Below, piece by piece: positions 3,527 to 57,573 of a stretch of 64,000 bases of DNA (position 1 is the stretch's first letter; the number at the start of each line of letters is the position of its first letter). Under the pieces are notes generated by a model. The model did not search any database, was not told the origin of the DNA, and worked only from the letters and a program-made list of their open reading frames with translations. Origin of the DNA: a virus. The translations under genes were made by a program, and so were the position numbers. The stretch spans positions 122,276 to 186,275 of the IMG/VR virus record IMGVR_UViG_3300031525_000001, one strand, 5' to 3'.

Positions 3527-3985
3527 GTGGGCACCACTGAGCAAGCTAAAGAACGTCGAGATTCCCGCCGAGCCGCTGGATTATGTGGTAAGTGCTCCAA
3601 TCCAGCATTGCTCGGTAAAAGCCTGTGTGAGCTGCATCGGCAGCAAGACCGTAAGATAAACAAACGGTTTAGGGTCAATCAAAAACAGCGTGTGATCGCT
3701 GGCTATGGCGGAAAATGCCAGTGCGAAGGTGGGTGTGATGAATCGAGATTTGAGTTTTTGACGATAGATCATGTCAACAACGACGGTGCGGAACACCGTA
3801 GAAACCTCGGAAGTGGCGCAATCGGACCCATGTTGTATAAGTACATTATCGATAACAATTTTCCCGAGGAGTATAGACTACTCTGCTGGAATTGCAATTG
3901 CGCTAAGGGACACTATGGTGAGTGTCCTCACGTAAATGAAAAGAATGCTGTCGCTGCGATGTCAGTTTCGGCAGGAGGAAAGTAA
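3527..3985 (+). CDS. HNH endonuclease
   Basis: CQCEGGC...LTIDHVNNDG...RLLCWNCN, plus an N-terminal CxxC...C-H zinc motif. Confidence 0.8.
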   Translation: MGTTEQAKERRDSRRAAGLCGKCSNPALLGKSLCELHRQQDRKINKRFRVNQKQRVIAGYGGKCQCEGGCDESRFEFLTIDHVNNDGAEHRRNLGSGAIGPMLYKYIIDNNFPEEYRLLCWNCNCAKGHYGECPHVNEKNAVAAMSVSAGGK

Positions 3986-3986
3986 C

Positions 3987-22152: not shown

Positions 22153-23763
22153 ATGGCAAACACACCCACTATCATCAAAGGTCAGCTAACATTCGTAGGC
22201 GCGATCACTGGACAGGTGTCTGTTCAGGCACAGCCCGTCGCGGGCAATAACCTGCTCTTCAATCTGCCCAACACGGTGCCGAATCCGAACCAAGTGATCT
22301 CGGTAGTCTCGGTCGTTGGCAGTACGGTCACCCTCGGGTTCACCCCGCCATTTCCGACCACTTGGAGCTTCTCGCAGATCACTGGCACCATCGCTACCTC
22401 GCAACTCGCCAGTCGCGAGGGTAACGGTTCCAAGGTGCAAACGACAAACCAAGGACTCACGGTCGCGGGCGATGTCGTTACTTATGACGGCTCGGGCAAC
22501 ATACAGGATTCCGGCGTTGCATTAGCCCTTCTTCTTGCTGGTGCCGCACCGTCCCCCGTAACCCCGCATTTGGGCTCGGCTGCTCAGTACGCTTTGCTCG
22601 GCACCACAATCACAAACTCGGATGGCGCAGGCACCGTAATCAGCGGCGGGAACATCAACGGCACGACCATCACGCCCGCTGGCTGGACCTTGACCCCACC
22701 TACGTCGGTCAGTTCTCCAGTTTCCTCTCAGGCATTGACGGACCTCAACACGGCGATCACCTACTTCGGTGGTTTGACCTCGACAGCAATCACGACAGCC
22801 GACCTCGGAACGCAGGGTAATGGTTCGGCTGCCAACGTGTTCAACGCAGGTGTTTACAAGAGCGGTAGTTCCATCAACATCGCTACCAGCATCGTTCTCG
22901 ACGGTCAGGACAACCCGAACGCCATGTTCGTGTTCATCGCTACCGCTTCGACCGTCACGCAGGAAAGTGGCACGTCGATTACTCTCATCAACGGCGCTCA
23001 GGCCGCAAATGTGGTCTGGGTCGTTGGGTCTTCATGGACCTCCATCACCCCAAGCACGACAGTAGGTAACATCCTTGCAGTCGCGTCGATCACATTGGGT
23101 GGTGGGACACTTCAGGGTCGCGCACTCGCCGCTGCCGCTATCACTCTCGCTGCCGCAGGCACCATTGTTTCGGCACCCCCAGCAGCACCGCCAATGGCTC
23201 AGACGTTCACCCCAGTTGTGGGCGGCTCACCAGCGGGACCAATTGAGTTTCTGACGGGCTACAACGCAACCACAGGATTGTTCTCGGCGGCTACGCCTCC
23301 GTATCCTGTAGCGTCCGTCAACGGTCAGACTGGCGTTGTCGTTCTCACCGCTGGATCAGTTGGTGCGGACGCATCTGGCGCTGCGGCTGCTGTTCTGGTG
23401 GAAACGGATCGCGCTGAAGCTGTGGAAGCTACTATTGCGGCTTCTGTTCCAGTCCTTTACGACGGAGCGGGAAATCCTGCGGCAGAAGCTTCGGGCTCAC
23501 CAGCGTCGAATGGTGACAACCATATCGCAAGTGGAGCGGCTACGCTCGTGGTTGATGGCAGTCCCCCAAATAGTTCGGTGACGGTCACGATGACGGGTGC
23601 ATCCGCATTTGCGAACAACTACTATGTGTACCTAACGTACTTGGGTGTTCCGATTAACCCCGGCCATTTGTACTACATCCCGATCTCGGGTTCATCGTTC
23701 ACGATTTACTCCGACAACGGTGCGGATGTTTCGACCGTGGCATGGACGGCAGTCGGTTACTAA
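22153..23763 (+). CDS. putative virion/tail protein containing a DUF3494 (ice-binding-like) beta-solenoid
   Basis: LGSAAQYALLG...AGVYK...LDGQDNPNAMFVF...LINGAQAANVVWVVGSS...GNILA...ITL...LQGRALA at about 22567-23170. Confidence 0.85.
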   Translation: MANTPTIIKGQLTFVGAITGQVSVQAQPVAGNNLLFNLPNTVPNPNQVISVVSVVGSTVTLGFTPPFPTTWSFSQITGTIATSQLASREGNGSKVQTTNQGLTVAGDVVTYDGSGNIQDSGVALALLLAGAAPSPVTPHLGSAAQYALLGTTITNSDGAGTVISGGNINGTTITPAGWTLTPPTSVSSPVSSQALTDLNTAITYFGGLTSTAITTADLGTQGNGSAANVFNAGVYKSGSSINIATSIVLDGQDNPNAMFVFIATASTVTQESGTSITLINGAQAANVVWVVGSSWTSITPSTTVGNILAVASITLGGGTLQGRALAAAAITLAAAGTIVSAPPAAPPMAQTFTPVVGGSPAGPIEFLTGYNATTGLFSAATPPYPVASVNGQTGVVVLTAGSVGADASGAAAAVLVETDRAEAVEATIAASVPVLYDGAGNPAAEASGSPASNGDNHIASGAATLVVDGSPPNSSVTVTMTGASAFANNYYVYLTYLGVPINPGHLYYIPISGSSFTIYSDNGADVSTVAWTAVGY

Positions 23764-40243: not shown

Positions 40244-42130
40244 GTGTTACCCAGAGACCCCCAAAACCACAGAAAACAGGGCATTTTCGTGAAAATCGTC
40301 ATCGCCGACAAGCTGCCACAGGAACACTCTACCGAATTTCGGGGTCTCCCTGTTATAATTGAGTGGCCGAAGGGAAGCACCCGCGTCGGTAAGAAACCTG
40401 ACGGTACGTCGTTCAAAACAGAGATGAAAGTCGATTACGGCTACATCCCCGACACGACGGCAACCGGGGATAAGGAGAATCTCGACATCTACAGGGGTCC
40501 CAACGAAGATGCCGAATATGCCTACATTGTTGAGCAAAACACACCTGATGGAGAGTTCGACGAGTACAAAGTGATGCTGGGGTTCGACACACTAGAGGAA
40601 GCTGAAAAGGCGTACATTGGGCAAGCGGGCGAAGAACTGCTGGGCGACATCTCCGAGGTCGATTTCGAGTACCTGTTCGACACGGTGAAGGCGAAACAGA
40701 AGGACGCCGCCGCCAAGAAGCAGGCTGCAAACGAAGACCTTCAGTGGCGGATCACGGGCGATTCGACAATGTTCGATATCAACGGTCTAGACGCGAGCGG
40801 GGAGCGGCAGGGTGGTGCAAGCGTATACCGCACCCGATACAAAGGCGAGCCCGCCTATCGCCTAAAGTTCATCAGCGCACCGGAGCGTCGGAAAACCGGG
40901 CTGGGGCAGGAGATTTATGATCGGGCAATCGCCGAGGTAAAGCGCCGAGGAGCGAAGTATTTCCTGTCGGATGACCAACGCGACCCCGCTACCGCTGAGC
41001 CAGCGTGGGACCGACTCAAGAAACGGTATCCGGTCACGCATGATGAAAAGCAGAACCGTTATGTGATCGCTCTGACAGCGGCCGGTGAGAAGTACACGGT
41101 CATCGAAGCCTTTTTGAAGAACTACAAGCACGAGGTGGACTTCTACGATGAAGTCGCGCACCTCGTACAGGACAAATTGGATCAGGCTCTTCAGGATGCG
41201 GGGATCAAGGCGGTGGTTAGCTCCCGTGCGAAGACCCCAGATCGGCTGGGGAAAAAGCTGTACAAGCGAAATCAAAAGAGGAACTATAAGACGTTCCGCG
41301 ATATTGACGACGACATCATCGATTTAGCTGGCTGCCGTGTGGCGCTTTACATGCCAGCCGACCGCGATGCGGTTGGACAGATCATTGAAAAGTTATTCGT
41401 CCCCGTGCGACCCCCAAAGAGCTTCCCCGAAGCCAGCAAGCCCGAGGAAGGCGATACGCTGGGCTACACGGCAACCCACTATCTGGTGCGCCTGCGCCCC
41501 GAGACGCTCCGCAAGAAGGAGCTTCGGTACGCCGACACGCAGATCGAGATTCAGGTAGCATCCGTCCTGATGCACGCATGGGCCGAGGTCACGCACGACC
41601 TGCTTTACAAGCCCACAAAGGGCGGATTGACGCCCGAAGAGCACGAAACTCTGAGCAACCTGAATAAGTTAGTGCAGGAAGGGGAACGGGAGCTTGAAAA
41701 GCTTCAGTTCGCCATCGAAGGTCGCACGGATGAAAGCCTTCGGTTTGAAATTGCAGCAGCTTTGGCAACGAGTCTCAAAGCCCGGTCGATGGGAAAGACT
41801 GCCTCCCTGACCGTAGGCGACATTGAGACGGCTGTCAGAGCTATTGTTGGAAGCAAGACATCCCTGTGGTCGATTTACATGAAAGCCACGGAGACGCTCA
41901 GGAAAGCGCGTTGGGAAAAGCCCGACGATGAGAAGTACCGCAAAGCATGGGAAGCTGCTGGGTATCACAAGCCCGAGGAATCGCCCGCGAGTGAGACGCA
42001 TTACATTCGTGAGGCCATGGAGAGACTTGCTCCGGGTAAACCAGTCAGCACGCTGTGGGTTCTGCCAAACCGCAGTGAGGTTATAGCTCTTGCTCAACAG
42101 TTGAAAGCCGAGGCAACAAAGGAAAAATAA
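40244..42130 (+). CDS. polyprotein: inorganic pyrophosphatase-like + GNAT + RelA/SpoT-like synthetase + small C-terminal module
   Basis: PPase IEWPKGS..VDYGYIPDT..GDKENLDIY..DEYKV; GNAT RRKTGLG; RelA/SpoT RAK, DLAGCR, GYxATHY, EIQ..MHAWAEVTH. Junctions KQAA 40718, LTAA 41072, KTAS 41795. Start may be GTG 40289. Confidence 0.85.
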   Translation: MLPRDPQNHRKQGIFVKIVIADKLPQEHSTEFRGLPVIIEWPKGSTRVGKKPDGTSFKTEMKVDYGYIPDTTATGDKENLDIYRGPNEDAEYAYIVEQNTPDGEFDEYKVMLGFDTLEEAEKAYIGQAGEELLGDISEVDFEYLFDTVKAKQKDAAAKKQAANEDLQWRITGDSTMFDINGLDASGERQGGASVYRTRYKGEPAYRLKFISAPERRKTGLGQEIYDRAIAEVKRRGAKYFLSDDQRDPATAEPAWDRLKKRYPVTHDEKQNRYVIALTAAGEKYTVIEAFLKNYKHEVDFYDEVAHLVQDKLDQALQDAGIKAVVSSRAKTPDRLGKKLYKRNQKRNYKTFRDIDDDIIDLAGCRVALYMPADRDAVGQIIEKLFVPVRPPKSFPEASKPEEGDTLGYTATHYLVRLRPETLRKKELRYADTQIEIQVASVLMHAWAEVTHDLLYKPTKGGLTPEEHETLSNLNKLVQEGERELEKLQFAIEGRTDESLRFEIAAALATSLKARSMGKTASLTVGDIETAVRAIVGSKTSLWSIYMKATETLRKARWEKPDDEKYRKAWEAAGYHKPEESPASETHYIREAMERLAPGKPVSTLWVLPNRSEVIALAQQLKAEATKEK

Positions 42131-42136
42131 GTCATC

Positions 42137-42679
42137 ATGGCAGTCGCACCCTTCACCCGCATTGTGGTCGATAAGAAGGAGGAGGCGAAGTTCCGTCGCC
42201 GAGCCCTGAATCATTACCCATTGGAATACATGGAAGCCCTGTGGGGCAAAGTACGCAGCGATATCCTCTACATTCATGCCTTTGTGAAGGTCGATCACAA
42301 GCCCGGAAAACGCACCCTTCGGTACGAGGATTACGAGATCGATGAACATGAAGAGGACGCAGCCGAGATCGGGTTGACTTACCTCGGCACCATTCACACC
42401 CACCCGAACGCCAACGACGCCCAGTTCAGCGAAGTTGACTGTGAGCAGTCGCAGGATTCTCAAGACGTGATGATGGGTATCTGTGCCATCCAAACTACCT
42501 ATCTTGATGAGGAAACCAAGACTCAAAAGCCCCTGAACCGCAAGGTCGTCCGCGTTGAATACTGGCCTACTGTGACCCCGCTCATCGCAATTCGCCGCGA
42601 TACACCGCCCTCAAGGTCGGTCAAACGAGCCCTCAAAAGGGGCTATAAACTGGCGAAAAAGAAGAAGTCCCGCCGTTGA
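42137..42679 (+). CDS. JAB/MPN+ metallopeptidase
   Basis: N-terminal E (PLEYM) and GTIHTHPNANDAQFSEVD (HxH-x7-S-x2-D). Confidence 0.8.
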   Translation: MAVAPFTRIVVDKKEEAKFRRRALNHYPLEYMEALWGKVRSDILYIHAFVKVDHKPGKRTLRYEDYEIDEHEEDAAEIGLTYLGTIHTHPNANDAQFSEVDCEQSQDSQDVMMGICAIQTTYLDEETKTQKPLNRKVVRVEYWPTVTPLIAIRRDTPPSRSVKRALKRGYKLAKKKKSRR

Positions 42680-42708: not shown

Positions 42709-45700
42709 ATGAACCCATTGCTTCGGAAGATAGCCAAACAGCCCGCGACCACGACCTCATTCTTTGAGACAGACGGCTTTCTCTATCACGGCACCACGTT
42801 ACGAGACCTCAAGTCCATCCTGACCGAAGGGAAGGTGGAGGGGCACAGCTATTGGGGCGTGAGGGAGACGGCGGACATGTATGAGGGCGGGGCCATGTTA
42901 CGGCTGCCCGTTAGCAGGTTCAACGAAGCCTTTCTACTCCCTGACGAGAACATGATTCAAGACCCGTATTTCATGGAAGACGAGAACGGGGATTACGATC
43001 AGAAGAAAATGAACGCCACGAATCGTGCGTGGAAGGCGAGCAAGAAGACGTGGATGGATTCGCTGAAGATTTGGGGAGCGGTCATGTACGATGAGGATAT
43101 GCCCGTCACACCAGCCGATGCTATCGAAGGTCGGCAGGTTATGGCGAGCAAGACCGCAACCGAGTTGCCGCCGCTTAAGTTCACCCAACCATCGGATAGG
43201 AAGCTCGAAGACTACGAGCTAGTTTGGGTTGATACGCAAAAGTTAGATCGCGAGTGGTCGAAGGACAAACACCTGTACCTCGCTCCGGGGGATAAAACCA
43301 ATCACATCGGCGACCGCTACGCTCGCTTTACCCAGTGGCGGCAGGACAACCCCAACACCCCAGTTGAGGCTCCTATTGTGTCGTGGAGCGACAATGCGGG
43401 TGGTGAGGCGCATTTCACCAACGGTCGGCACCGCTTCTCCGTGCTCCGCGATCAGGGTTACCCAAAGGTTCAAATCATGGTGCCGCAGAGCCAAATCGAG
43501 ACGTTCAGCAAACTGGCATCCTCTTCGGTACGGGAAATCAACATCTCGGAAGATCAGGGTTCCGCAGAAGGGTACACAGCGGACACCAATGCGGAACAAC
43601 TCCAGAATTGGCTCGACCGTTTCGGCTACACGAACAAAGAGTTTGTTGCCGACCTGCGGAAGAAGTATGACACCTTCGCCGTTCTAAACAACATCAACGT
43701 ATACGAGGATTCCCGTGGCAAGGGCTACGGGGACTATCTGCTTGCCGAGTTCTTGCGAGAAGCCGGGGATCGCGGTGCGGGCATCTGTCTGTTGGTTGCC
43801 GACACCGCTGAGGAACAAGCCCAAGGCTTCAATTTGGTGGAGTGGTACGAACGCAACGACTTTGAGCAGGTTGCCTCGGTCTACGGCGGGGAACTGATGA
43901 TAATGGGCATCATGAATCCCAAGGTTGCGGCACAGAAAACCGCCGCCGATATCGGTCAGGTCAAGAACATCATTAACGAAATGATGGGCGTGCTCGCTTC
44001 CGGGCTCCCGCATCCCGAAGTCAAGATCGTAAACCAGACCAACCGTATGCTGGGGTACGATGTGTGGGAACGGGGTAGGGATGAGGCGGGTAACACTTGG
44101 GGTGCGGACAACACCACAATCGGCATTCAGAAGTCCATACTGGGGCACGAGGAATCGCTTCGCCGTACTATCGCTCACGAACTGTGTCATCATGAAGTGG
44201 CTCTGCTTATTGGGAAGCCGAAACTCATGGAAGTCGGGTTCGACGCCTACAACAAATACAAAAAGCTACTCGCACCCGAGGGACACGGCAAAGAATGGCA
44301 GGCCGTCGCCGCTCGCTTCAATGCGAAGTACGGAGCGGACTTCGTGACCGAGTTCTCCGATCAGAGTGTCATCAGCGATGAGCCAACGAAAGAATACTGG
44401 CTCCTGCTCAATAACTACGTCTACGGTCGGCACAAGCAACGTTTGGGCTGGCAATGGGCGCTGGGGCTCAGCCGTCAGGCTATGGCGTACCTCGATGGAC
44501 TCGATTGGACTTCGGGAGAATTCAAGCTGGTCAAAACGAACGACCACGTGTTTACTCGTGGGCGTGGGCGTATCAAACAATACGGCGGATGGAATCTGCC
44601 CCGCACCCCAGAGCAGGAGCAGAAAATTCAGGACCTTTGGGCGAATGCTCCGATGGCGAAGTTCGGTTGTTCCGCCGCTCAGGATGAAGCCGACATTGAG
44701 GCAGCAAAGAAAGCCAAGTCAGGTCCCCACAAAAACGCCACGTCTCAAATCAACCTGCCGCCTGATGCCGCCTCCGGGATGATGGAAGCCGCCAAGCAGA
44801 TTCCAGATGAGGAACTCGGCAAGGATGGTCGTGAGGACGATCCACACATCACAGTTAAGTACGGGGTAAAGCCCGACCCCGCTCTGTTGAGTCAAGTTGT
44901 AGGCGAGCAGCAACCGTTTACGGTCACGCTAGGGAAGACGCACGTATTCTCCGTGAGCGAAAGCTCTGACGCCCAAGCCCCCATCGTGGTTCAGTGTCAC
45001 GCTCCCGAACTTGAGGCTCTCCACAACAAGGTCGCAGAAGCGATGGGCACCCGCAAAGATGATTTTCCCTACGTACCGCACGTGACCCTTGCCTACGTCA
45101 AGCCTGACGCTGCCGCCAAATATGAGGGAATGGATTGGGCCGAGGGCATTTCCTTCCAAGTGGACAGCATCACCCTGAGTACGAAGGGTGGTGGTCAGGT
45201 TCGAGTACCTTTCGGTAAGCCGCGAAAGTCAGCATCCCACAAGACGCCGCCGATGAGCGACACGCAGTACAGGAATCCCGAGATGGGCGAGGAGACGAAT
45301 GCTTACGCCGACATCCCCGAGCGTGTGATGGGTGTGGAAGACCTGCCGTCGCTTGAATCGCTTTCACCCGACCTGTTCAAGACGGGAGCGGGCAGCGTGT
45401 ACGATCTTGATTTACAGGACGTGGTTGCTTGGGGTGGTAGCCTCAGCGAGGCACAGGGCGATTGGGATAAGATCAGGTCCGAAGCCGCTGGACGTGCGAA
45501 AGCCGAAGGCAAGGATTGGGAGAAGATGCCCGAGGCTGAGCAGGAAGTGTGGCTCGACAAGATCGGCTGGGAGTGGCTCGGGGCGACATGGGAAATCACT
45601 ATGAATCGCCTTCAATCCCTGAAGTTCCCCCTCACGGTTTACCGTGGGCTGGGCTCGGTGAGCCTTAAGGAAATCAACAAGGGTCAATACGCGGAGAAGG

Positions 45701-48700
45701 GGACTGGCATCTATTGGTCCTACGACGAGAATAACGCCTATGTGCACGAAGAACTCGCTGCTGGGCACCCGCACATCGTAATCCTGCGTGGCGTCGTGAG
45801 TTCGCCCAAGCAGATCGACTGGATTCGCACTGCCTACGTGAACCTCGTGGCAGCCGATGAGCGGGAGATCAACATTCATCCGGGTGAAGAAATCCAGATC
45901 ACGGGCTACAAATACAAAGGTGAGAAGGCGTGGAAGAATCCGCCAAAGAACCTTCGCACAGTCCGTGCGGCAGCGCAGAACTTCAAGCCCATGCCGTTCG
46001 ACAACTGGTGTGACGCGAATCCGATGTACCAGCCAGACGATTTCAACGAGGCTGAGTACCGCTACGACGAGAATGTCGCCCACTTCAGCACAGTGGACTT
46101 CCCCATCACGATCTATCGTGCGGTTCAAGTTGAGCAGGGCACGCAACCGAATTTGGAAAAGGCGGGCGTCTATTGGACGTGGGTTGAGAACAGTGCCGAT
46201 GCGTACTTTGGCTCGGGGTCAATGTGGGATCAAGGTGGTCCGCACCCGAAACATCCTCAAACCTTGATCCTCAAAGCCAAGGTACTACGCTCAACCGATG
46301 TGGACTGGGACGCGACTCTTCTTGCTAACATGCTCAACGAAGATGAAAATGAGATCACAATTGAGTCGGGCGCTGAGCTTCAATTGATTGGTATCGATTA
46401 CGGGCAAGGCTATAAGAAGCCCGCTCAGAAAAGGGTCATGGCATACGGCGACGAATCCAAGAACCTGCCTTTGCGTGGTCAGAAGGGCATCGGCGGACAG
46501 GACTTCCCTCTGATGTTCGACCCGCCGTTGTTCTCCGATGAGAAGGAAGCCGCACGGAAGATGCCGAAGTTCTACCACGGCACGGCAGCGGAGAACCTCG
46601 ACGATATCCTAAAGAACGGCCTCAAAGCCAGTAAGGACGCTGCGTCGGCAAAGATGGGAATGTTTAATCCCAACCGAGCCAACGTACAGTACAAGTCTGA
46701 GCAGGGTGTAGGTGAGTGGCAGGGCTGGAACATTGATTTCAGTGCCGATCCAGTCAAGGAACACATGCTGCCCGCATCGTTCGTTCGGAAACTGAAGGGA
46801 ATCGAGCAGAAATTCATCAACGTCGCCGATGTGGTGGAAACGCAGGGCGAGCAATGGACAACTGACAGACGTGTGGACGAGATTCACACGCAGATGGAAG
46901 CGGAGAAGTGGTTCGAAGCCATCCTCGTAGATGAGTACGAAGACCAGCCGGGGAAATACTACTTGGAAGAGGGGCATCACCGCACCCGTGCGGCTAAGAA
47001 GATGGGCAAAACGACTATTCCAGCCGTGATTATGAAGTTGGAACCCCGTAAACCCCACTGGTCGTTATCGTCAGGTATCGTCAGAAAATCGTCAGATATC
47101 GCCAAGTTTGCGTTCTTCATCGAAGTGCCGAAAGAAACCCGTGGTCATTTCTGGGACGAGCCGCCCGCGCACAATCTGGAGTTCTGGGCATTCCGAAGCC
47201 GTCCGCCAGTCCTGATGAACGAGAAGGTTTACTTCACGTTCGACAAGATGCCTGTCGCAGAGACCACCGTCCTCAAGGTTGAGAAGCCGGGTGAGTCGTT
47301 GTGCGAACTGAGCGGCAAGTACGAAGACCACTGGAAGCTTTACTGGGAACCGAAGCAGTTTGTCAAGTATGCAGGCACCACAGCGCCTACGCTGTACCAT
47401 GGCACCTGCCCCGAGAACGCTGAAGCCATCATGAAGAACGGCTGGGGGCCGAATCAAGTCTCATCGGGCGGGAACGCTGGACAGCCGCAGTACCTCTATC
47501 TCACGAACTTCCCTGAGAATGCTCAGTGGTTCGCCAATGAGAAGGGGTGCGACACCATCCTTGAGGTCCGTAACATCCCGATGTCGTATCTCGAAGTTGA
47601 TCCTGAGGACGGCACTGAGGACACCATTGAGAGAGAATTGAACTTTAGCGAGAAGGCATTCCCCGGCACGGTTGTACTGACAAAGCCACTACCTGCGGAC
47701 CACTTCAAGGTGTTCAAGAGTAAGATCGGCAGCCTGAATGAGAAGCGGAATGAAAAGTGGATTTACCACCCTGACTATGGCGCGTTCTCGCAGAAGGGAA
47801 GCATAGGCCCTCATGCAACACTGATAGCGAGAACTATGGGTGAGGGCATGTCCTCTGGGCGGAAGTACGAAGAGGTACTACGGGGCTACGCGGTGATCGA
47901 CGTGGATCAGAAAACCGTGACCTTGGCAACCCCCACAAACGAGTTGATACCTAACGACGTGGTAGACCTGTTCAAAAAGACATATCCCCACTACGCCCTA
48001 TCGATCCCAGCGGAGTCGAAAGCAATCGGTGTGACCGCCGCCATGCCGAAGAAGTGGTATCACGGCACGTCCACGAAAAATGCCGAGATTATCATGGGGG
48101 ATGGTTACCTACGCCCAGATCAGGAGACCACCTACGACATCGACATCCCGCGTGACGGGGCGGTATACATCGCAGAGTTCGACGTAGCAAACCAGTACGC
48201 TATCGAGCGCGGCGGACCCGTGCTTGAGGTAGCCGCTCCTGACATCAGTAAGCTCCTGCCCGATGAGGACGATGTTTACGAACTCCTCAATGACCGTGGT
48301 GGTGAGTTGAACGCCAAGGGTTCCGCCCAAGCCAAGCGAGTTAAGGCTTTGTGGCTCAAGCAATGGAATGACGAGAATGCTTCCTACAATGAGCCCGAGA
48401 AGTTCCCGGTCTACAAAAACTTCGAGGAAGCGTGGAAAGCATGGGGCGAGATCGAGTTCGAGGGCTCGGCAGAGCTTGCGGAGCAGATGAAGTATCTGAC
48501 CGACTACATCGTCAAGAATGACCCCAAGCTCGCTCGTGCAATCATCGAACTCAGTGGCAAGGCCGCTCACATGGGACCGCTCAAGGTCGTGCGTCAAGTC
48601 AAGACCGCCGCACCGAAGTCCATCTGGTATCACGGCACCAGCATCAAGAATCTGCGAAGCATCATGAGTCAGGGGTTAGTTCCTGAAGGTACGGAAAAGG

Positions 48701-51700
48701 TTTGGGCAGACGATCCTGATGCTGGGATATCCGCACCCAGCCGTCAATCTTACGGCGGCATTTACGTGTCACAGAACCTCATGACGGCTGCGGGAGCCCC
48801 CGATACCGAGGATAGAAAGGCTCGCGGCGGCTCGCTCGTGGTTATCATGGAGCTTCAGCCGAACACCATGTACCTTGACGAGGACAACGTTACGGGGGTT
48901 CTCGGTGCTCCAATCAAGCACATGAGCGATAACACCTTCCACGTTCTCTGCTACTACTTGGCAGCTACACAGGAAGGCGCAACCCAAGACTGGCAGGATG
49001 AGATCAGGGTGATGCGGGAAGATTACGTCCGCAAGTGTTTCACGCAATGGGAAGCCAAGTTCGCTGAACGTAAGATGCCATTCCATCCCGAACTGAAGGC
49101 TGAGCTTGAGAAGCTCCTACCCAGCGTGTGGCTAGGTGCCGTCACCCGTGCGGCGGGTCACGTCAAGGACAACTACTCCTACATTCGGGCATGGGATCAA
49201 GTCTTCTACGGCACCCCTAAGGAGAAACAACGCCCCGACATGAACACCATACTCCCCGATGCGTCCGAGGGAGAGGCGGCGTTCCGCGAAGCGGCAGAGA
49301 AGGTCACCCGTACATTGCGGCTCCTAGCCCGTCCGAACACTGAAGGAAGCCAGACATACAACATTAACACCTCCCGCATCAATGAGCCGATTGGCTTCAG
49401 CGGGTCAAACCACATTCTCGCTCTCGTAGAAGTTCGGGACCTTGAAGTGCGGGCAACCCCATCGCCAGTTCGAATGCTTCTACACTGGGGCACCATCCCG
49501 CAGGATTTCTTCAGCCAGTGGAATACAAAGTACGGCAGCAAGTATGAAGTGGTGGACGCACGCAAGGGTCAGCCCAAGGCTAAGGGCGTGGCGGCATCGG
49601 CTCACGAAGACGATCCTCAGGTCTTCTACCACGGAACCTCGTGGCAGGCCGCTCAACTGATCGACAAGGAAGGTCTGAAAGCGAGCGACAACCGTCTGAC
49701 AGGCGGCAAGAAATACATCTGGTGCGCCATCGCGGAGTTCGCGGCGAAGGAATACGGTGCGAGTGTGACGGACAGCGACCAGTACGCCGTGATCGAGTTC
49801 ATCTGGGATTACGGCAAGAGCGAGCCTGACCCGGAGCATTTCGAGGAAGGCGACATGTACCGTCGCATTGAGGGCGATATCTCTCGGCAGAACATCACCG
49901 CCATCAAGTATTTCGATGGTGGGCGGATCGTCAAGACGGCTGGGTTTGAGGAAGAAATCAAGATCACCACGGCACCAGACGGGCGAATTACCGCCAAACA
50001 CGTCGATGGAAGTGCTTCCGGCACCATGGAAGACCGCGAGGGGCTGGTTAAGTGGTTTGATTGGAGCACTTTACCCAAAGGTGGGGCTGGAATTTACGAC
50101 AAAGCCTTCGTTTTGGGCACCGTAAGCGTCAAGGTCGCGACACGTCGTAATGGGCTCGGCAGGGCGCTTGTAGGGGCTGTGCTCGACGCAGCGAAGGCTC
50201 AGGGTGCCCAAGTGTGCTTCTTGCTCGCTCATTCGCTCACAGGGCTCTCTGGGAAGGAATTAAGCTCCTTCTACAACAGTCTGGGGTTCCAGCCCTACGT
50301 GATCGACCCGCCGCCACGATGGTTCGACAGCAGCACCGCAGGCATCTTCATGAAGAAGCTGGCAGGCGTGGCAAAGCTCGCCGCCATGAACCGCATTAGC
50401 CAGCAGGACGCCGTTGACCGCAAGATGTTCGGCCCTGTCTACCATGGCACCACCGAGGAGAAGCAGGAGAACATCGGGAACGAGGGCTTCAAGGTCTACA
50501 TCGGGGACGCGGGATCGGGCGACGTTGCCCACGGTTACGAAGGTAACCAACCCTACCATGACGGCATCCCAGCCCCCGTGCACCATCTGGGTTACGGCGT
50601 GTACTTCACGACCGCCAAGGCTATCGCCAAGCAGTTCGCAGGCGGCACCACGCGGGGCATGAAGACCTACTACCTCGACGTGCCACGGCTGGAGACCATC
50701 AACTTCGGAGTGCCGAAGACCATGATGAAATGGTGGATCAGTCAGGGCTACAACGCGGACCTCGCCAAGAAGAATCGCGTGGAAGCGACCAAGCCGATGA
50801 CCGAGCACCTGAAGGCTCAGTTTGACGCCGTATGGTTCAAGGGCAAGGGCATGTACAAGCTGCTCGACGGCGATCAGATTTGTGTGTTTGACGCGAGCCA
50901 CATCTATGAAGTGGACGCTGCCATGTCTAAGCCGGGTGACATCGGCTCCAAGGTCACTCGTAAGGCTGATGGGATGAAGGGTGTCATCAAGAACATCCGC
51001 AGCATTCCGCCTGATGTGGCACAACAGTATCACGGTGGGGCTGACAAGTTCTACGAGATCAAGTGGGCGAAGGGCGGCACCGACCATAACGTCTATGCCC
51101 GCGACATAGACTTCGTTGGGGCGAAGGCTCAAGGTGCAACGGCGTCGATGAAGATCGCCGAAGGATTCAATAATGAGGGCTTCTGGGCGGGCGAGGGTAA
51201 CGCCGCGTCTGGCGTGCTGCCGATCTGCACCACCACTGGTCGCATCTGTCTCGCGTGGCGGTCACCCGATGTTCACATCGGCAATTGCTGGGGCACCATC
51301 GGTGGAGCGGTCAAGCCAAAGATGAGCCTCGCGGACAGTGCCAAGGCCGAACTAACGGAAGAGACGGGCTTCACGGGCGGCATCACCATGCACCCAGCTT
51401 ACGTATTTTCAAAGGGCGGCTTTTCCTATCACAACTTCCTCGGCACCGTGGGTACGGAGTTCCGCTTCGCCCCGCAGTCCGAACATCACTGGGAAACCAC
51501 GGGTCTAGAATGGTTCACGTGGGTAGATATTCAGGAGATGGTGAAGGATAACGCCAGCGATTTCCACCCGGGACTCATCAGTTTGTTCAAGAGCGACGGC
51601 AAGAAGATCGAGCAGCTTCTCGGTAAGCCCAAGACGGCTTCGGACGACGACGGGGATATGCCGAACATGCTTCAGGTCTTCCCCGAACGTCCCGATGTGA

Positions 51701-54360
51701 TGGAGACTTTCCGCCACATGCGTCTGTTTGAGCGTGACCGTTTGATCGAGGAAGCTCAACTTGAAGAATTACATCCAGCCGATCTGAAGACGAATCAGGC
51801 GACCCTCAAGCGGAAAGACCTCCAGTATTTCTTGGACAACCCCGAGGAGATCACCAAGCCGCACAGCAATGTCGGGCTGAGTGACACGGAGCAGTTGTAC
51901 CCCCTCGTGTGCCGCACCACCGAAGGCGATTGGCTGTACGACGGCAACCACCGCGCAAACGCCGCCATGAAGCTCGGCATCTTGCTCAAGTGCAAGGTCG
52001 TGGACCTACGAGATTACGAGGAGCCACGGGGGAAAGTCTCCCGAAAGCTCGCTGCTCGCGGTGAAGTGGGTCCTGTGTATCACGGCACCGATAAGAAATT
52101 CGACAAGTTCGAGCAGAAACCCGGCACCCGATACATTCTCTTCTCCGAGATTAAGGTACAAGCTGGTGGGTTCTTCTTCACCGATGACCCTGAGGAAGCG
52201 AAAGAGTTCGGCTCAAACGTCATGACCTGCTACTTGAAGATGAAGAAGCCACTGATTCGGCAAGAAGATCAATACAATCTGAGCAAGAAACAGATCGCCG
52301 ACCTGACTTACATCTGCGAGCTATGTATGAGTGACGGCTATTCCGACTTGCAAGGCAATTCCGTCAAGACGATTGAACTGGGAGCCTTTGCCATCGATGT
52401 AGACCCAGAAGGCAACTGGCTCAACGAGATTGTGAAGCAGAACGGCCTCGATTGGAACATTTTGGACAATCAGGAAGCCGTCAACCGCATGAAGGAACGC
52501 GGCTACGACAGCACCATGGTGGATGAGTACAACGGCAAGTATAGCTATTGCGTGTTTTCAGCCGACCAGATTAGGATCGGCGGCGGTAAAGCAAAGGCGT
52601 TGACCGCAGCCACACCAGCCCGAGCCCTCAAGCTCTATCACGTCACGACAGTGCCTATTGCCAAAGACATCAAAGCTCACGGCTTCAAGCCCGTGGATCA
52701 AGGTATGTGGAAGAACTACTACGCTCCGCAGGGACGCGACGGCATCTACTTTTACGACGATTTGAAATACTCCGAGGCTTACGCCGCCTACGCTGAGGGT
52801 CAACTCTTCACACGCAACATGCAGCCAGAGAATTCGTGGGAAGAAAACAAGAAGCAAATACCTCAGATGGCAATCATTGAAGTACAGGTTCCCGAAGGCG
52901 TGGCAATCACCACCGACCAGAAGGAGGATGGGTTCTTCGTACCTACAGCCGATCTGGGTAAGGTCAAGATCACGGGTATGCACAAGTACGATTACGTCCC
53001 TACCGAGGGCAGGAAGCCCGGTGAGAAGTTCGGGGCAGCCTTCCCAACCTTCGAGCAGGTGATGGACGAATCCACCTTGGCTGATGACGAATTCATGTTT
53101 GGCAGCGACGAGGAAAGCAAACGCTGGTACGATCAGGCGTTGGCGTTCTGGAAATCCCAAAAGTTCCCGCTCACGGTGTATCGCGGCATGGCTGTTTTCA
53201 ACGAGCGTCATGACATTGACTACAGCACCTTCGGTTGGTCATGGTCTTTGGATAGGAAGTTTGCCGAGAACTTTGCGGAAGATAAGTACATCGACTACCC
53301 CGATCAACACCGCATCGAGGTCTTCGAGGGTAAGATCAAAGCGAACGCTGTGGACTGGCTTAACACCTTCAGGGCATGGGTCACTCTCCCCGAAGAGAAG
53401 GAAGTCCGCCTCAAGCCCAAGGCTCAGGTCGAACTCCCAGCGTTAGGCCGATCCGTGACCGCTGCCGATCTTCCTCGTAGCAAGTACGACAAGGTTTGCT
53501 ACACTATCGCCATGGACGATGCGCTGTACGGCTACTTCGGTCAATACGTGCAGTGTGCCGACGCCTTTGAGGACAACCCAGCGGCATCCGGTCGAGTGGT
53601 TGAGTTGGTCAAATCACTCACGCCATTCGTACCGCCGACTACTCGAAAGTGCCTCTATCGTGGGGAAGAGATTCGCATGGGCGACGACCGCGAGCCCGCC
53701 AAGTGGGAGCCACATCTTCGAGACCTGTTGTCTTGGTCGGCAGCTTACGACACCGCCAAGGGATTCTCGGGCGGACATCGGGGCATCGTGTGGCAGACCG
53801 TGGGCAAGATTCAAGGTATCGCTCTGGAGGATATCGTTCTTTGGCGTAATCGAACGCACCCCGATGAAAGCAACTATCCGGGTATGCAGTCCGAGTGGTT
53901 TGTGATGAATACCTGCAACGCGAAGGAAGCAACCCCGCCCAACGCACAGCCAGCCCGAAGCTATGTGACCGCTGCGGCTGATGGGTTCCTTTACCACGGC
54001 ATGAGCATGACGGACTACAATCGAGCCATGAGTGCTGGCGGCGTACTGCCTGAGCCTAGCTGGTGGGGCACCGCTGAGATCGCCGAGTATTACGCTGAGA
54101 CCGCTGCCGAAGAGATTGGACCCGAGGAAGAATACAAGGTTATCAAGTTACCACTCAGTGCATTCAACCCCGCGTTGCTGGAGGCCGACCAGAACTCGGT
54201 TGCTGAGCCTCTGACCTACACGCTTGGTCGTAGTGAAGATGAGTTGTATGAGGAATGGCAGAACTGCAAGGGTACGTGGCAAGACAGCCTGAGAATTTAT
54301 GGGAGCGTTGTCTACAACGCCCCCATTGAGGTCACCGCACAAACCGTCCTTTCTTCTTAG
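42709..54360 (+). CDS. 3883-aa polyvalent polyprotein (14 ART-like, 3 ParB/Srx-like, 2 GNAT, SprT-like, 2H, Nudix, ASCH/PUA-like and unknown modules)
   Basis: YH(G/V) motifs at 42781, 46570, 47392, 48055, 48625, 49624, 50437, 52075, 52633, 53986. YR(G/A) at 45637, 46111, 53176, 53653. GRHR/GHHR/GNHR; HELCH 44176; PHIT/PHVT 44845/45079; Nudix-like box 51301. Confidence 0.9.
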   Translation: MNPLLRKIAKQPATTTSFFETDGFLYHGTTLRDLKSILTEGKVEGHSYWGVRETADMYEGGAMLRLPVSRFNEAFLLPDENMIQDPYFMEDENGDYDQKKMNATNRAWKASKKTWMDSLKIWGAVMYDEDMPVTPADAIEGRQVMASKTATELPPLKFTQPSDRKLEDYELVWVDTQKLDREWSKDKHLYLAPGDKTNHIGDRYARFTQWRQDNPNTPVEAPIVSWSDNAGGEAHFTNGRHRFSVLRDQGYPKVQIMVPQSQIETFSKLASSSVREINISEDQGSAEGYTADTNAEQLQNWLDRFGYTNKEFVADLRKKYDTFAVLNNINVYEDSRGKGYGDYLLAEFLREAGDRGAGICLLVADTAEEQAQGFNLVEWYERNDFEQVASVYGGELMIMGIMNPKVAAQKTAADIGQVKNIINEMMGVLASGLPHPEVKIVNQTNRMLGYDVWERGRDEAGNTWGADNTTIGIQKSILGHEESLRRTIAHELCHHEVALLIGKPKLMEVGFDAYNKYKKLLAPEGHGKEWQAVAARFNAKYGADFVTEFSDQSVISDEPTKEYWLLLNNYVYGRHKQRLGWQWALGLSRQAMAYLDGLDWTSGEFKLVKTNDHVFTRGRGRIKQYGGWNLPRTPEQEQKIQDLWANAPMAKFGCSAAQDEADIEAAKKAKSGPHKNATSQINLPPDAASGMMEAAKQIPDEELGKDGREDDPHITVKYGVKPDPALLSQVVGEQQPFTVTLGKTHVFSVSESSDAQAPIVVQCHAPELEALHNKVAEAMGTRKDDFPYVPHVTLAYVKPDAAAKYEGMDWAEGISFQVDSITLSTKGGGQVRVPFGKPRKSASHKTPPMSDTQYRNPEMGEETNAYADIPERVMGVEDLPSLESLSPDLFKTGAGSVYDLDLQDVVAWGGSLSEAQGDWDKIRSEAAGRAKAEGKDWEKMPEAEQEVWLDKIGWEWLGATWEITMNRLQSLKFPLTVYRGLGSVSLKEINKGQYAEKGTGIYWSYDENNAYVHEELAAGHPHIVILRGVVSSPKQIDWIRTAYVNLVAADEREINIHPGEEIQITGYKYKGEKAWKNPPKNLRTVRAAAQNFKPMPFDNWCDANPMYQPDDFNEAEYRYDENVAHFSTVDFPITIYRAVQVEQGTQPNLEKAGVYWTWVENSADAYFGSGSMWDQGGPHPKHPQTLILKAKVLRSTDVDWDATLLANMLNEDENEITIESGAELQLIGIDYGQGYKKPAQKRVMAYGDESKNLPLRGQKGIGGQDFPLMFDPPLFSDEKEAARKMPKFYHGTAAENLDDILKNGLKASKDAASAKMGMFNPNRANVQYKSEQGVGEWQGWNIDFSADPVKEHMLPASFVRKLKGIEQKFINVADVVETQGEQWTTDRRVDEIHTQMEAEKWFEAILVDEYEDQPGKYYLEEGHHRTRAAKKMGKTTIPAVIMKLEPRKPHWSLSSGIVRKSSDIAKFAFFIEVPKETRGHFWDEPPAHNLEFWAFRSRPPVLMNEKVYFTFDKMPVAETTVLKVEKPGESLCELSGKYEDHWKLYWEPKQFVKYAGTTAPTLYHGTCPENAEAIMKNGWGPNQVSSGGNAGQPQYLYLTNFPENAQWFANEKGCDTILEVRNIPMSYLEVDPEDGTEDTIERELNFSEKAFPGTVVLTKPLPADHFKVFKSKIGSLNEKRNEKWIYHPDYGAFSQKGSIGPHATLIARTMGEGMSSGRKYEEVLRGYAVIDVDQKTVTLATPTNELIPNDVVDLFKKTYPHYALSIPAESKAIGVTAAMPKKWYHGTSTKNAEIIMGDGYLRPDQETTYDIDIPRDGAVYIAEFDVANQYAIERGGPVLEVAAPDISKLLPDEDDVYELLNDRGGELNAKGSAQAKRVKALWLKQWNDENASYNEPEKFPVYKNFEEAWKAWGEIEFEGSAELAEQMKYLTDYIVKNDPKLARAIIELSGKAAHMGPLKVVRQVKTAAPKSIWYHGTSIKNLRSIMSQGLVPEGTEKVWADDPDAGISAPSRQSYGGIYVSQNLMTAAGAPDTEDRKARGGSLVVIMELQPNTMYLDEDNVTGVLGAPIKHMSDNTFHVLCYYLAATQEGATQDWQDEIRVMREDYVRKCFTQWEAKFAERKMPFHPELKAELEKLLPSVWLGAVTRAAGHVKDNYSYIRAWDQVFYGTPKEKQRPDMNTILPDASEGEAAFREAAEKVTRTLRLLARPNTEGSQTYNINTSRINEPIGFSGSNHILALVEVRDLEVRATPSPVRMLLHWGTIPQDFFSQWNTKYGSKYEVVDARKGQPKAKGVAASAHEDDPQVFYHGTSWQAAQLIDKEGLKASDNRLTGGKKYIWCAIAEFAAKEYGASVTDSDQYAVIEFIWDYGKSEPDPEHFEEGDMYRRIEGDISRQNITAIKYFDGGRIVKTAGFEEEIKITTAPDGRITAKHVDGSASGTMEDREGLVKWFDWSTLPKGGAGIYDKAFVLGTVSVKVATRRNGLGRALVGAVLDAAKAQGAQVCFLLAHSLTGLSGKELSSFYNSLGFQPYVIDPPPRWFDSSTAGIFMKKLAGVAKLAAMNRISQQDAVDRKMFGPVYHGTTEEKQENIGNEGFKVYIGDAGSGDVAHGYEGNQPYHDGIPAPVHHLGYGVYFTTAKAIAKQFAGGTTRGMKTYYLDVPRLETINFGVPKTMMKWWISQGYNADLAKKNRVEATKPMTEHLKAQFDAVWFKGKGMYKLLDGDQICVFDASHIYEVDAAMSKPGDIGSKVTRKADGMKGVIKNIRSIPPDVAQQYHGGADKFYEIKWAKGGTDHNVYARDIDFVGAKAQGATASMKIAEGFNNEGFWAGEGNAASGVLPICTTTGRICLAWRSPDVHIGNCWGTIGGAVKPKMSLADSAKAELTEETGFTGGITMHPAYVFSKGGFSYHNFLGTVGTEFRFAPQSEHHWETTGLEWFTWVDIQEMVKDNASDFHPGLISLFKSDGKKIEQLLGKPKTASDDDGDMPNMLQVFPERPDVMETFRHMRLFERDRLIEEAQLEELHPADLKTNQATLKRKDLQYFLDNPEEITKPHSNVGLSDTEQLYPLVCRTTEGDWLYDGNHRANAAMKLGILLKCKVVDLRDYEEPRGKVSRKLAARGEVGPVYHGTDKKFDKFEQKPGTRYILFSEIKVQAGGFFFTDDPEEAKEFGSNVMTCYLKMKKPLIRQEDQYNLSKKQIADLTYICELCMSDGYSDLQGNSVKTIELGAFAIDVDPEGNWLNEIVKQNGLDWNILDNQEAVNRMKERGYDSTMVDEYNGKYSYCVFSADQIRIGGGKAKALTAATPARALKLYHVTTVPIAKDIKAHGFKPVDQGMWKNYYAPQGRDGIYFYDDLKYSEAYAAYAEGQLFTRNMQPENSWEENKKQIPQMAIIEVQVPEGVAITTDQKEDGFFVPTADLGKVKITGMHKYDYVPTEGRKPGEKFGAAFPTFEQVMDESTLADDEFMFGSDEESKRWYDQALAFWKSQKFPLTVYRGMAVFNERHDIDYSTFGWSWSLDRKFAENFAEDKYIDYPDQHRIEVFEGKIKANAVDWLNTFRAWVTLPEEKEVRLKPKAQVELPALGRSVTAADLPRSKYDKVCYTIAMDDALYGYFGQYVQCADAFEDNPAASGRVVELVKSLTPFVPPTTRKCLYRGEEIRMGDDREPAKWEPHLRDLLSWSAAYDTAKGFSGGHRGIVWQTVGKIQGIALEDIVLWRNRTHPDESNYPGMQSEWFVMNTCNAKEATPPNAQPARSYVTAAADGFLYHGMSMTDYNRAMSAGGVLPEPSWWGTAEIAEYYAETAAEEIGPEEEYKVIKLPLSAFNPALLEADQNSVAEPLTYTLGRSEDELYEEWQNCKGTWQDSLRIYGSVVYNAPIEVTAQTVLSS

Positions 54361-56370: not shown

Positions 56371-57573
56371 TTACGCCCCCGCGCCCCCGGTTGGTTTCCG
56401 CGTGGGAATTGGGATGATGGGTCTCACGTTGATGGGTTCGCGCTGTGGAGCCGCCGAAGACCCGTAACGTTCGAGCAGCATGGGTGCCATGGCGTTCTCG
56501 GATTCCTTGATGAACGTGGTGGTCTCGCCCTCCATGTCCACACGGATGAAATCGCCCAGCTTGACTTGACCAGTGGCAACGAGGTTCGCCATCGGGAACA
56601 CCAGATGACGCTCAATGGCACGCTTCAAGTGACGCGCACCGTACTTCGGGTCCGTGCCTTCCTTGAGCAGAAACTCTTTGACAGGCTGTGTGCAGTTGAA
56701 CACGAATTGGTTCGCACCAGCGGCCATCAGCACGCGCTGTTGCACCATGCCGAGTTCGATCTCAAGAATCTGCACCAGATGCTCATCGCGGAGAGTTTTG
56801 AACACGACTGATTTGTCGATGCGGTTCATGAACTCCGGGGTGAACTTGCGCTTTGCGGCGTCAACTGCGCTGCGGTCGATCTTTGCATCCAGTGAGTCAT
56901 TGACGACGATGTTCTCACGGGAGTTACCGAAGCCCATGCCGCCATTCATCAGTTCGTTCATGTCGGCAGCACCGAGGTTCGATGTCATGATGATAATGCA
57001 CTGGCTAAGGTCTACGCGGTGGTTGTCGCCGAGGGTCAGCGTAGCCTTGTCGAGGATGCCGAGCAGGAGTTGCCACAGTGAGTCAGAAGCTTTTTCGATT
57101 TCGTCGAACAGCAGAATCGATAACTTCAACTTCTCGCTGAACCACTGGTTCAACGCTTCCTGCGTGAGGAGAGGATGGGTTTCGCGGTGACCGAGGTAGC
57201 CCGGGGGCGAACCGATCAGCTTGGCGATTTCGTGGGAATGCTGGAATTCAGCGCAATCAATCTTGATGCAGGCTCGGGCGTCACCGAAGAGGGATTCAGC
57301 CATCGCTTCTACGACGCGAGTCTTGCCGCTGCCCGTGGGACCGAGGAAGAGAAGATTACCAACTGGACGACCCGGAGCGTTCAGGCCCGCCAAGAACATC
57401 TGGTAAATCTCAACAACTTTATCGACGGCGACATCTTGTCCGACGATACGTTTACGCATGGCTTTCTCAAAATCACGCGCATCGTTTGAACGCTTGGTGG
57501 GGTCTAACTTGAGTCCAGTGCCAGTACCTTTCATGCCTACTCCTGTTCCGTATCCGAGTCCCACAAGTACCAC
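56371..57573 (-). CDS. ClpA/B/C-like AAA+ ATPase with only the second (D2) module
   Basis: GPTGSGKT, IDCAEF..HEIAKLIGSPPGYLG, FDEIEKA, TSNLG, PEFMNRID, YGARHLKRAI. Start may be ATG 57534. Confidence 0.9.
   Translation of the reverse strand: MVLVGLGYGTGVGMKGTGTGLKLDPTKRSNDARDFEKAMRKRIVGQDVAVDKVVEIYQMFLAGLNAPGRPVGNLLFLGPTGSGKTRVVEAMAESLFGDARACIKIDCAEFQHSHEIAKLIGSPPGYLGHRETHPLLTQEALNQWFSEKLKLSILLFDEIEKASDSLWQLLLGILDKATLTLGDNHRVDLSQCIIIMTSNLGAADMNELMNGGMGFGNSRENIVVNDSLDAKIDRSAVDAAKRKFTPEFMNRIDKSVVFKTLRDEHLVQILEIELGMVQQRVLMAAGANQFVFNCTQPVKEFLLKEGTDPKYGARHLKRAIERHLVFPMANLVATGQVKLGDFIRVDMEGETTTFIKESENAMAPMLLERYGSSAAPQREPINVRPIIPIPTRKPTGGAGA

Follow-up and report, generated by a model that had tools for sequence, protein, structure and literature searches.

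In a 64,000-nucleotide stretch of viral DNA (the window), which forms the final 64 kb of the 186,275-bp IMG/VR virus record IMGVR_UViG_3300031525_000001, the gene at 42709-54360 (+) encodes a 3,883-residue chain of about 24 modules fused head to tail, 14 of which resemble ADP-ribosyltransferases (ARTs). We interpret this protein as a phage-type polyvalent effector polyprotein of an uncultured huge phage, carrying an effector battery that would act through NAD+, and assign this interpretation a probability of about 0.7; loading of the chain into the phage head and its cutting at the junctions between modules form the weaker part of the proposal. The record, which is 58% complete (CheckV), encodes a large terminase, a tail sheath and a major head protein, placing the gene in a phage with portal-terminase packaging, as expected of polyvalent proteins.

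An earlier note, made from the sequence alone, had described the gene as a single open reading frame (ORF) of 3883 amino acids (aa). This was upheld, as the frame begins with ATG, remains open for 11.6 kb and is not interrupted by any stop codon. Megablast found no match to the region in GenBank phages, and tblastn against the same phages returned domain-level matches only, at 38% identity or less. For domain assignment, the chain was divided into 24 segments, each of which was scanned separately against Pfam.

Fourteen ART-like units from six sequence families

The motif [YFLW]-H-[GV]-[TM] was found ten times in the chain (aa 26, 1289, 1563, 1784, 1974, 2307, 2578, 3124, 3310 and 3762) and the motif Y-R-[GA] four times (aa 977, 1135, 3490 and 3649). 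All 14 ART motifs listed in the earlier note were thus located, each within one codon of the nucleotide position given there. The tripeptide YHG was observed 10 times, as compared with 0.29 expected from composition. Hidden Markov models (HMMs) of the ART families, built from independent homologues, detected exactly 14 non-overlapping ART-like units at the motif positions. Thirteen of these are complete, nine with H-Y-[E/D] and four with R-S-[E/Q]xE sites, and the remaining one is a truncated stub that belongs with the H-type units. Using all-against-all comparison and iterated profiles, we assigned the units to six sequence families, i.e., A1 (the first and last units), A7 (the stub and four mid-chain units), ART-PolyVal (two units), A9 (one unit) and, amongst the R-type units, A3 (three units) and A2 (one unit). 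The units are arranged as follows.

42751-43152 (+): ART module 1, H-type, family A1, aa 15-148; A1 HMM 2.3e-32, paralogous to module 14 (the last unit, counting the stub) at 1.7e-17
45454-45978 (+): ART module 2, R-S-ExE, family A3, aa 916-1090; A3 HMM 3.5e-48, homologous to the folded module 12
45997-46449 (+): ART module 3, R-(T)-ExE, family A3, aa 1097-1247; A3 HMM 8e-65
46549-46647 (+): truncated ART stub, aa 1281-1313; reduced to the YHGT strand and first helix
47377-47754 (+): ART module 4, H-Y-[E/D], family A7, aa 1557-1682; A7 HMM 3.4e-37
48034-48420 (+): ART module 5, H-Y-[E/D], family A7, aa 1776-1904; 2.9e-36, with Y-H-G-T, strand-2 Y and PDED conserved
48604-49590 (+): ART module 6, family A7, aa 1966-2106, with an extension of 190 aa whose fold is unknown; 9.2e-46, weak Pfam Tpt1/PARP match at the motif
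49591-49935 (+): ART module 7, family A7, aa 2295-2409; 4.9e-32, weak Pfam PTS_2-RNA and ART-PolyVal matches
50377-51138 (+): ART module 8, divergent ART-PolyVal-like, aa 2557-2810; Pfam ART-PolyVal 1.4e-03, 19.8 bits, below cut-off
52048-52602 (+): ART module 9, ART-PolyVal, aa 3114-3298; Pfam PF18760 3.4e-17, 64 bits against a cut-off of 31.2
52603-53028 (+): ART module 10, H-Y-E, family A9, aa 3299-3440
53026-53457 (+): ART module 11, R-S-ExE, family A3, aa 3440-3583
53458-53967 (+): ART module 12, R-S-QxE, family A2, aa 3584-3753
53968-54357 (+): ART module 13 (14 with the stub), H-type, family A1, aa 3754-3883; A1 HMM 1.3e-49

The earlier note had already recognized the stub as such, correctly, with the first strand and helix alone remaining. 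In the segment scans, nine of the 14 proposed ARTs had no Pfam match, and those ART segments that were scanned against PHROG gave no match there. The gathering cut-off of PF18760 (31.2 bits) was passed by module 9 only, with modules 7 and 8 scoring 13.4 and 19.8 bits, respectively, and the 11 further units had no match to this ART-PolyVal model. The match of module 8 nevertheless spans profile positions 30-133 of 140, and hhalign related this module to module 9 at about 80%. Four of the six ART families are without a Pfam or PHROG model, and each of these has stand-alone homologues. An exhaustive search with the last 585 residues of the chain found 259 relatives. Many relatives of A1, A2 and A9 are stand-alone proteins of 120-190 aa, with more than 100 such homologues of about 135 aa for A1. 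With module 10 alone, a word-indexed search yielded just one fragment, and a profile search was required to find homologues.

Evidence that the units adopt ART folds

Compared with the PDB, the A1 profile matched Tpt1 (1.5e-4), followed by PARP10/14 and DarT, while the A7 profile matched Tpt1 (4e-06), followed by exotoxin A, PARP16 and DarT. Amongst solved structures, both profiles matched ARTs only, with matches spanning strand 1, helix 1 and strand 2. The A7 and A1 profiles aligned with one another at 97% probability, reaching through the acidic PDED motif, and A9 aligned with A7 at 86% probability. The A2, A3 and A9 profiles gave chance-level matches only against PDB sequences, and these families were therefore modelled by folding with AlphaFold2 (AF2). 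Modules 11 and 12 were folded together (alignment A6, placement checked) and module 10 alone (alignment A9); a four-module alignment (A5) and an alignment of modules 9 and 10 (A8) were discarded because MAFFT had spread short homologues over paralogous modules. The predicted local distance difference test (pLDDT) values were 86 for modules 11 and 12 and 81.6 for module 10.

In the models, the Y-R-G, S-W-S and ExE or QxE motifs of the R-type families map to strands 1, 2 and 5, as do the H, Y and E residues of A9 in module 10. The R, W-S and ExE residues are invariant in the A3 family alignment and, more generally, each family, stand-alone homologues included, shows little or no variation at the H or R, at the strand-2 position and at the acidic residue of strand 5. 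The units thus show the fold of the ART superfamily, i.e., a split beta-sheet with the order strand 1-helix-strand 2-helix and a late catalytic strand, as well as an H-Y-[EDQ] or R-S-E triad on strands 1, 2 and 5, with deviations in modules 3, 9 and 13. In a Foldseek comparison with 48,161 PDB representatives, neither model reached E <= 0.001, and only the make-up of the match lists and the VIA alignments were informative. We accept 13 complete ART folds and one stub, with a confidence that is graded by unit.

In BFVD, the model of modules 11 and 12 (ma87d017c60ec) matched small uncharacterised proteins from several cultured phages (Achromobacter Motura, Ralstonia RP12, Sinorhizobium phiN3, Klebsiella Eowyn and Gordonia Octobien14), which could serve as tractable stand-ins.

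Other enzymes in the chain

Whole-chain searches against Pfam returned ART-PolyVal, Tpt1, PARP, 2H, GNAT, Nudix and SprT-like domains. By segment, the firm Pfam matches were two GNATs, a SprT-like zincin, a 2H domain (also Acb1-like), a Nudix domain and a single full ART-PolyVal domain; below cut-off were a further ART-PolyVal match (aa 2557-2810) and a ParB_N domain. The modules between the ART units are listed below.

43156-43563 (+): unverified module, aa 150-285, GRHR-type motif only; no support in Pfam, PHROG or hhalign
43561-43938 (+): GNAT acetyltransferase 1; Pfam Acetyltransf_7 1.2e-05, paralogous to GNAT 2
43939-44673 (+): SprT-like zincin, HExxH; Pfam SprT-like 2.5e-07, 31 bits against a cut-off of 25.6
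44674-45258 (+): 2H phosphoesterase (LigT/Acb1-like); Pfam 2_5_RNA_ligase2 3.1e-16, LigT_PEase 8e-09, Acb1 7e-06
46741-47103 (+): ParB/Srx-like module, aa 1345-1465; Pfam ParB_N 1.5e-04, PHROG ParB-like 2.2e-08
47101-47379 (+): unknown module, aa 1465-1557, conserved in 7 relatives; no Pfam or PHROG match
47746-48033 (+): unknown module; no match in Pfam, PHROG or hhalign scans
49936-50376 (+): GNAT acetyltransferase 2; Pfam Acetyltransf_7 3.3e-06
51139-51633 (+): Nudix hydrolase; Pfam NUDIX 1.1e-07
51634-52047 (+): ParB/Srx-like module, aa 2976-3113; hhalign 88-94% to the ParB module at aa 1345-1465, no direct Pfam match

The two GNATs, the SprT-like HExxH module, the 2H and the Nudix named in the earlier note were all recovered by Pfam. 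Of the three ParB/Srx modules it had proposed, those at aa 1345-1465 (Pfam, PHROG) and aa 2976-3113 (hhalign) were retained, but not that at aa 150-285, and the label ASCH/PUA-like given to aa 1465-1557 found no support in any search. Taken together, HMM, Pfam and fold evidence agree with its central claim of an array of ART folds from both catalytic classes, mixed with other conflict-type enzymes.

Relatives and module turnover

We refer to the protein analysed here as P0001 and to its metagenomic relatives as P0002, P0003, etc. With the same HMMs, 18 ART units were counted in P0002, 13 in P0003, nine in P0046 and four to eight in others. Most relatives combine R-type and H-type units, and in some phages the array is divided among consecutive genes. 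As metagenomic relatives of 5,200-5,500 residues carry 13-18 ART units, the copy number is not unique. The earlier note had called the copy number and the mixture of classes exceptional, which was an overstatement given these relatives, in which both classes are mixed, and a published protein with 12 ARTs that is considered below.

P0002 (5480 aa) is the closest relative, with 86% identity, and is colinear with P0001 apart from two differences. At the stub, about 1,800 residues of P0002 are absent from P0001, and the orthologous ART is full length in both P0002 and P0004. The left break falls inside an ART, just past its first helix, which explains the stub as a deletion scar. The second difference is that P0002 lacks modules 1-2; its leader jumps to the GNAT, with breakpoints exactly on the junction motifs described below. 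No long repeats were found by a DNA repeat search of the array, which returned motif codons only, arguing that the modules are old paralogues rather than recent duplications.

Chimeric joins were also observed in P0007 (aa 1631-1650) and P0005 (aa ~3020-3040), each at a YHGT-to-YHGT or TAA-to-TAA join; these are module-deletion scars from recombination between paralogous motifs. P0009 carries an additional R-S-E ART (aa 1883-2012; Pfam ADPrib_exo_Tox 2.2e-08), a module that is not in P0001.

A junction motif shared with the major head protein

Between modules, we found 13 copies of the motif [K/V/R]-[T/L]-A-[A/G/S], as compared with 2.1 +/- 1.4 in shuffled sequences. Nearly all copies lie at module boundaries, a coincidence that is partly circular as the boundaries were set in part by this motif. 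Junctions fall at aa 148, 268, 410, 1775, 1965, 2409, 2556, 2975, 3113, 3583 and 3753. The chain opens with a short leader that ends in the first such junction:

42709-42738 (+): leader MNPLL[R/Q/L] followed by the first K-x-A junction; N-terminus common to P0001-P0004 and P0006

This MNPLLx-K-x-A leader is kept in five orthologues, each of which has a different first module. This leader could act as an address tag for the capsid, or could simply be a gene start that has been retained. The major head protein of the phage (PHROG 2.2e-44) is encoded outside the window, at genome positions 87708-88664 (L009:3708-4664), and possesses two junction-like motifs (LLKTAGG and QKLAAS) within its first 30 residues, where we estimate that about 0.02 would be expected by chance. 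This N-terminal stretch with its motifs is invariant in 80 related IMG/VR phages, on contigs of up to 463 kb. The presence of the motif at the capsid N-terminus points to the head-maturation protease as the cutter and, through it, to capsid loading as for T4 Alt; the data suggest a putative route in which the chain is loaded into the capsid and cut by the head protease. In a cultured phage, the distant relative Tunturi_5 gp321 is encoded between head-tail connector and tail genes.

The full version of this model is one that we advance tentatively and with the odds somewhat against it. In it, the junction would be the site of the head-maturation protease and MNPLLx-K-x-A a capsid tag; at least 20 different enzymes would be loaded into the head as one chain, separated there and injected, recombination at the junctions would bring in new enzymes or remove existing ones, and the chain would amount to a library in which at least four uncatalogued ART families have distinct host targets.

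K-x-A is also abundant in several other giant ORFs of the genome, including 3936-9770, 9745-13092 and one upstream of the window.

Neighbouring genes

The giant gene is the third of a three-gene unit, the first two members of which are as follows.

40244-42130 (+): InPase plus RelA/SpoT-like nucleotidyltransferase, 628 aa; Pfam InPase 2.3e-30, RelA_SpoT 4.1e-11
42137-42679 (+): stand-alone Prok-JAB metallopeptidase, 180 aa; Pfam Prok-JAB 7.7e-08, HTH...S..D motif

In L001, L002 and the P0005 contig, too, an InPase-RelA/SpoT gene comes before the giant gene, and in L001 and L002 the JAB gene likewise lies directly upstream of the giant gene. The InPase domain matches PHROGs labelled minor head protein, virion structural protein and DarB-like antirestriction, which hints that proteins of this kind occur in virions elsewhere. 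The C-terminal tail of the JAB protein is very basic (KRALKRGYKLAKKKKSRR), and the spacing from its second His to its Ser is 8 residues versus the canonical 7. In a scan for promoters and terminators, sites were no more frequent than in shuffled sequence.

Elsewhere in the window, a 536-aa protein encoded at 22153-23763 combines an ice-binding-like domain (1.1e-23) with a K1-lyase C-terminal domain and probably serves as a tail fibre or spike; the ice-binding-like domain suggests a cold-soil habitat. A ClpB/AAA-type gene at 56371-57573 (-) matches an 'ATP-dependent protease' PHROG (8e-82), and on the P0009 contig a similar AAA gene (397 aa) is found downstream of the array. GIY-YIG homing-endonuclease-like genes were found at L002:13147-14028, beside a relative's array, and at L009:2204-2953 (-), beside the capsid gene of this genome.

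Predicted function and alternative explanations

A predicted role in NAD+-dependent host takeover or anti-defence, as the earlier note had proposed, is the most reasonable reading of the array. Each ART would draw on NAD+ to modify a host protein or nucleic acid of its own, the 2H and Nudix enzymes would destroy nucleotide immune signals, and together the modules would form a broad battery for host takeover and anti-defence. More speculatively, the chain would enter the prohead, where the head-maturation protease may cut it at the [K/V]-[T/L]-A-[A/G/S] junctions, and the pieces could then reach the host along with the DNA in the manner of T4 Alt.

Several observations weigh against this proposal. 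Just three of the 14 units were folded, and the A1 and A7 units (modules 1, 4-7 and 13 and the stub) match solved ARTs over their N-terminal half only. The sites of three modules deviate, with W for Y in module 13, F for Y in module 9 and T for S in module 3, such that some units may be inactive. With regard to packaging, neither the protein nor the contig (58% complete) yielded a MuF, portal fusion or other known head-packaging module. The three-gene unit comes after a minus-strand gene and lies outside the head gene block, about 25 kb away from the terminase. Nor was a prohead protease found in the contig: searches for Peptidase_S78 and Peptidase_S77 were negative, as was the S77 control in every genome, and none of the candidate ORFs close to the capsid gene matched a protease. 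Given the incompleteness of the contig, the missing protease is not decisive.

An alternative that shares the same enzymes but dispenses with the virion is that the chain is made in the infected cell, freed there by the neighbouring JAB protein or its own SprT-like zincin, and acts in place. The Prok-JAB protein directly upstream has an intact-looking metal site and a position that is conserved in relatives, the HExxH zincin lies inside the chain, embedded metallopeptidases have been proposed as processing agents of polyvalent proteins (PMC5512222), and the unit stands apart from the head genes with no MuF or portal link found in the contig. Characterised JAB enzymes, however, are generally known to cut after Gly-Gly tails, not K-x-A; moreover, the junction motif at the N-terminus of the major capsid protein points to a head protease, and the short conserved leader ending in the motif resembles the T4 capsid-targeting peptide as commonly understood. 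We consider in-cell release unlikely, though it deserves serious attention. It is quite improbable, in our view, that most ART-like modules are catalytically dead and that the chain serves as a bulk internal capsid protein or as decoys that bind NAD+ or targets. Such a role would accommodate the three substituted sites, the persistence of the stub in frame and the variation of whole modules between 86%-identical relatives, which points to individual modules being dispensable, but the near-invariance of the H or R, strand-2 and acidic strand-5 residues, even in stand-alone homologues, fits selection on catalysis.

We attach very little weight to the idea that the H-type modules are RNA 2'-phosphotransferases of the Tpt1/KptA type, serving RNA repair rather than host modification. 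Tpt1 structures are indeed the best matches of the A1 and A7 profiles, and Pfam PTS_2-RNA scores 1.9e-14 on the whole protein; that score, however, sums partial matches confined to the NAD-binding lobe (positions 90-128 of 177), modules of 115-140 aa have no counterpart of the N-terminal RNA-binding lobe of Tpt1, and exotoxin A, PARP and DarT are matched as well. Finally, an assembly or frame artefact that fused separate genes can practically be dismissed. In some relatives the array is indeed spread over consecutive genes (1444, 1262 and 3659 aa), but the frame here is open throughout, colinear proteins of 5480 and 5245 aa with 86-95% identity were recovered from independent metagenomes, and the leader and junction grammar extends along the entire chain.

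ADP-ribosylation is a central weapon for both phage and host. To our knowledge, phage ARTs with known targets are few, i.e., T4 Alt, ModA and ModB. The chain supplies 13 ART modules that are compact and separable; of the six families they represent, four lie outside Pfam and the PHROGs. As each of these four has stand-alone homologues, they are ready candidates for expression and target discovery. The junction grammar, which the capsid protein shares and at which modules are exchanged, provides a directly testable model of effector packaging and diversification in huge phages.

Comparison with known systems

T4 Alt is an R-S-E ART whose capsid-targeting peptide is removed by the prohead protease gp21. 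It travels in the phage head and, once trimmed there by the head protease, is injected and modifies host proteins (PMC5512222). The proposed model resembles it in head carriage, head-protease trimming and injection, and in a short N-terminal leader that ends in a putative cut motif. It differs in the motif, K-x-A here versus L/I-x-E for the T4 prohead protease gp21, and in having a chain of 14 ARTs instead of a single enzyme. No sequence match to Alt or to Pfam PF03496 (ADPrib_exo_Tox) was found in the protein; the R-S-E mono-ARTs C3, VIP2 and iota-toxin count among the closest known systems.

Of the H-type enzymes, Tpt1/KptA, diphtheria toxin, exotoxin A, PARP and DarT align with the A1 and A7 units at the H of strand 1 (YHGT), the helix after it and the Y of strand 2, and across the whole fold H-Y-E and H-H-h ARTs align with module 10. 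The units described here are, however, minimal (115-140 aa), without accessory lobes, and carry their acidic residue in a PDED-type motif. The earlier note had likened them to Tpt1 and Arr; this holds at the level of the NAD-binding fold, to which the comparison is limited because the Tpt1 N-terminal lobe is absent, with matches covering only positions ~90-128 of 177 in the Tpt1/KptA profile (PF01885) and ~87-149 of 180 in the Tpt1 chain.

The closest likeness is to the polyvalent proteins of Iyer, Burroughs, Anand, de Souza and Aravind (2017), which have 2-15 domains, with ART as the commonest modifying domain (PMC5512222). A 12-ART protein of a Pseudomonas prophage, WP_023121221.1, is already known from that work (PMC5512222). 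Like these proteins, ours is a giant chain of a tailed phage that joins several unrelated effector domains in one polypeptide (ART, GNAT, zincin, 2H, Nudix and ParB), with multicopy ART and with InPase and RelA/SpoT domains encoded alongside; the phage-type hallmarks are PF18760 (3.4e-17) and 2H (3e-16) in the chain and InPase (2.3e-30) and RelA_SpoT (4e-11) adjacent to it. It differs in having about 24 modules versus the stated 2-15, in that only one or two of its 14 ARTs match the ART-PolyVal model, in having no match to MuF, portal or MPTase-PolyVal models, and in its K-x-A junction and MNPLL leader. Four R-S-E units, moreover, share the chain with H-Y-[E/D] units; such mixing is typical of this clade, and we found no description of it for polyvalent proteins. 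As the R-type units have no Alt/VIP2 Pfam match and are R-S-E by motif and fold, the mixed-class chain extends the polyvalent description. The protein is thus an extreme example of the published polyvalent effector proteins and not a new kind of system and, since the overall concept has been published, the gain lies in breadth and mechanism rather than in a new principle.

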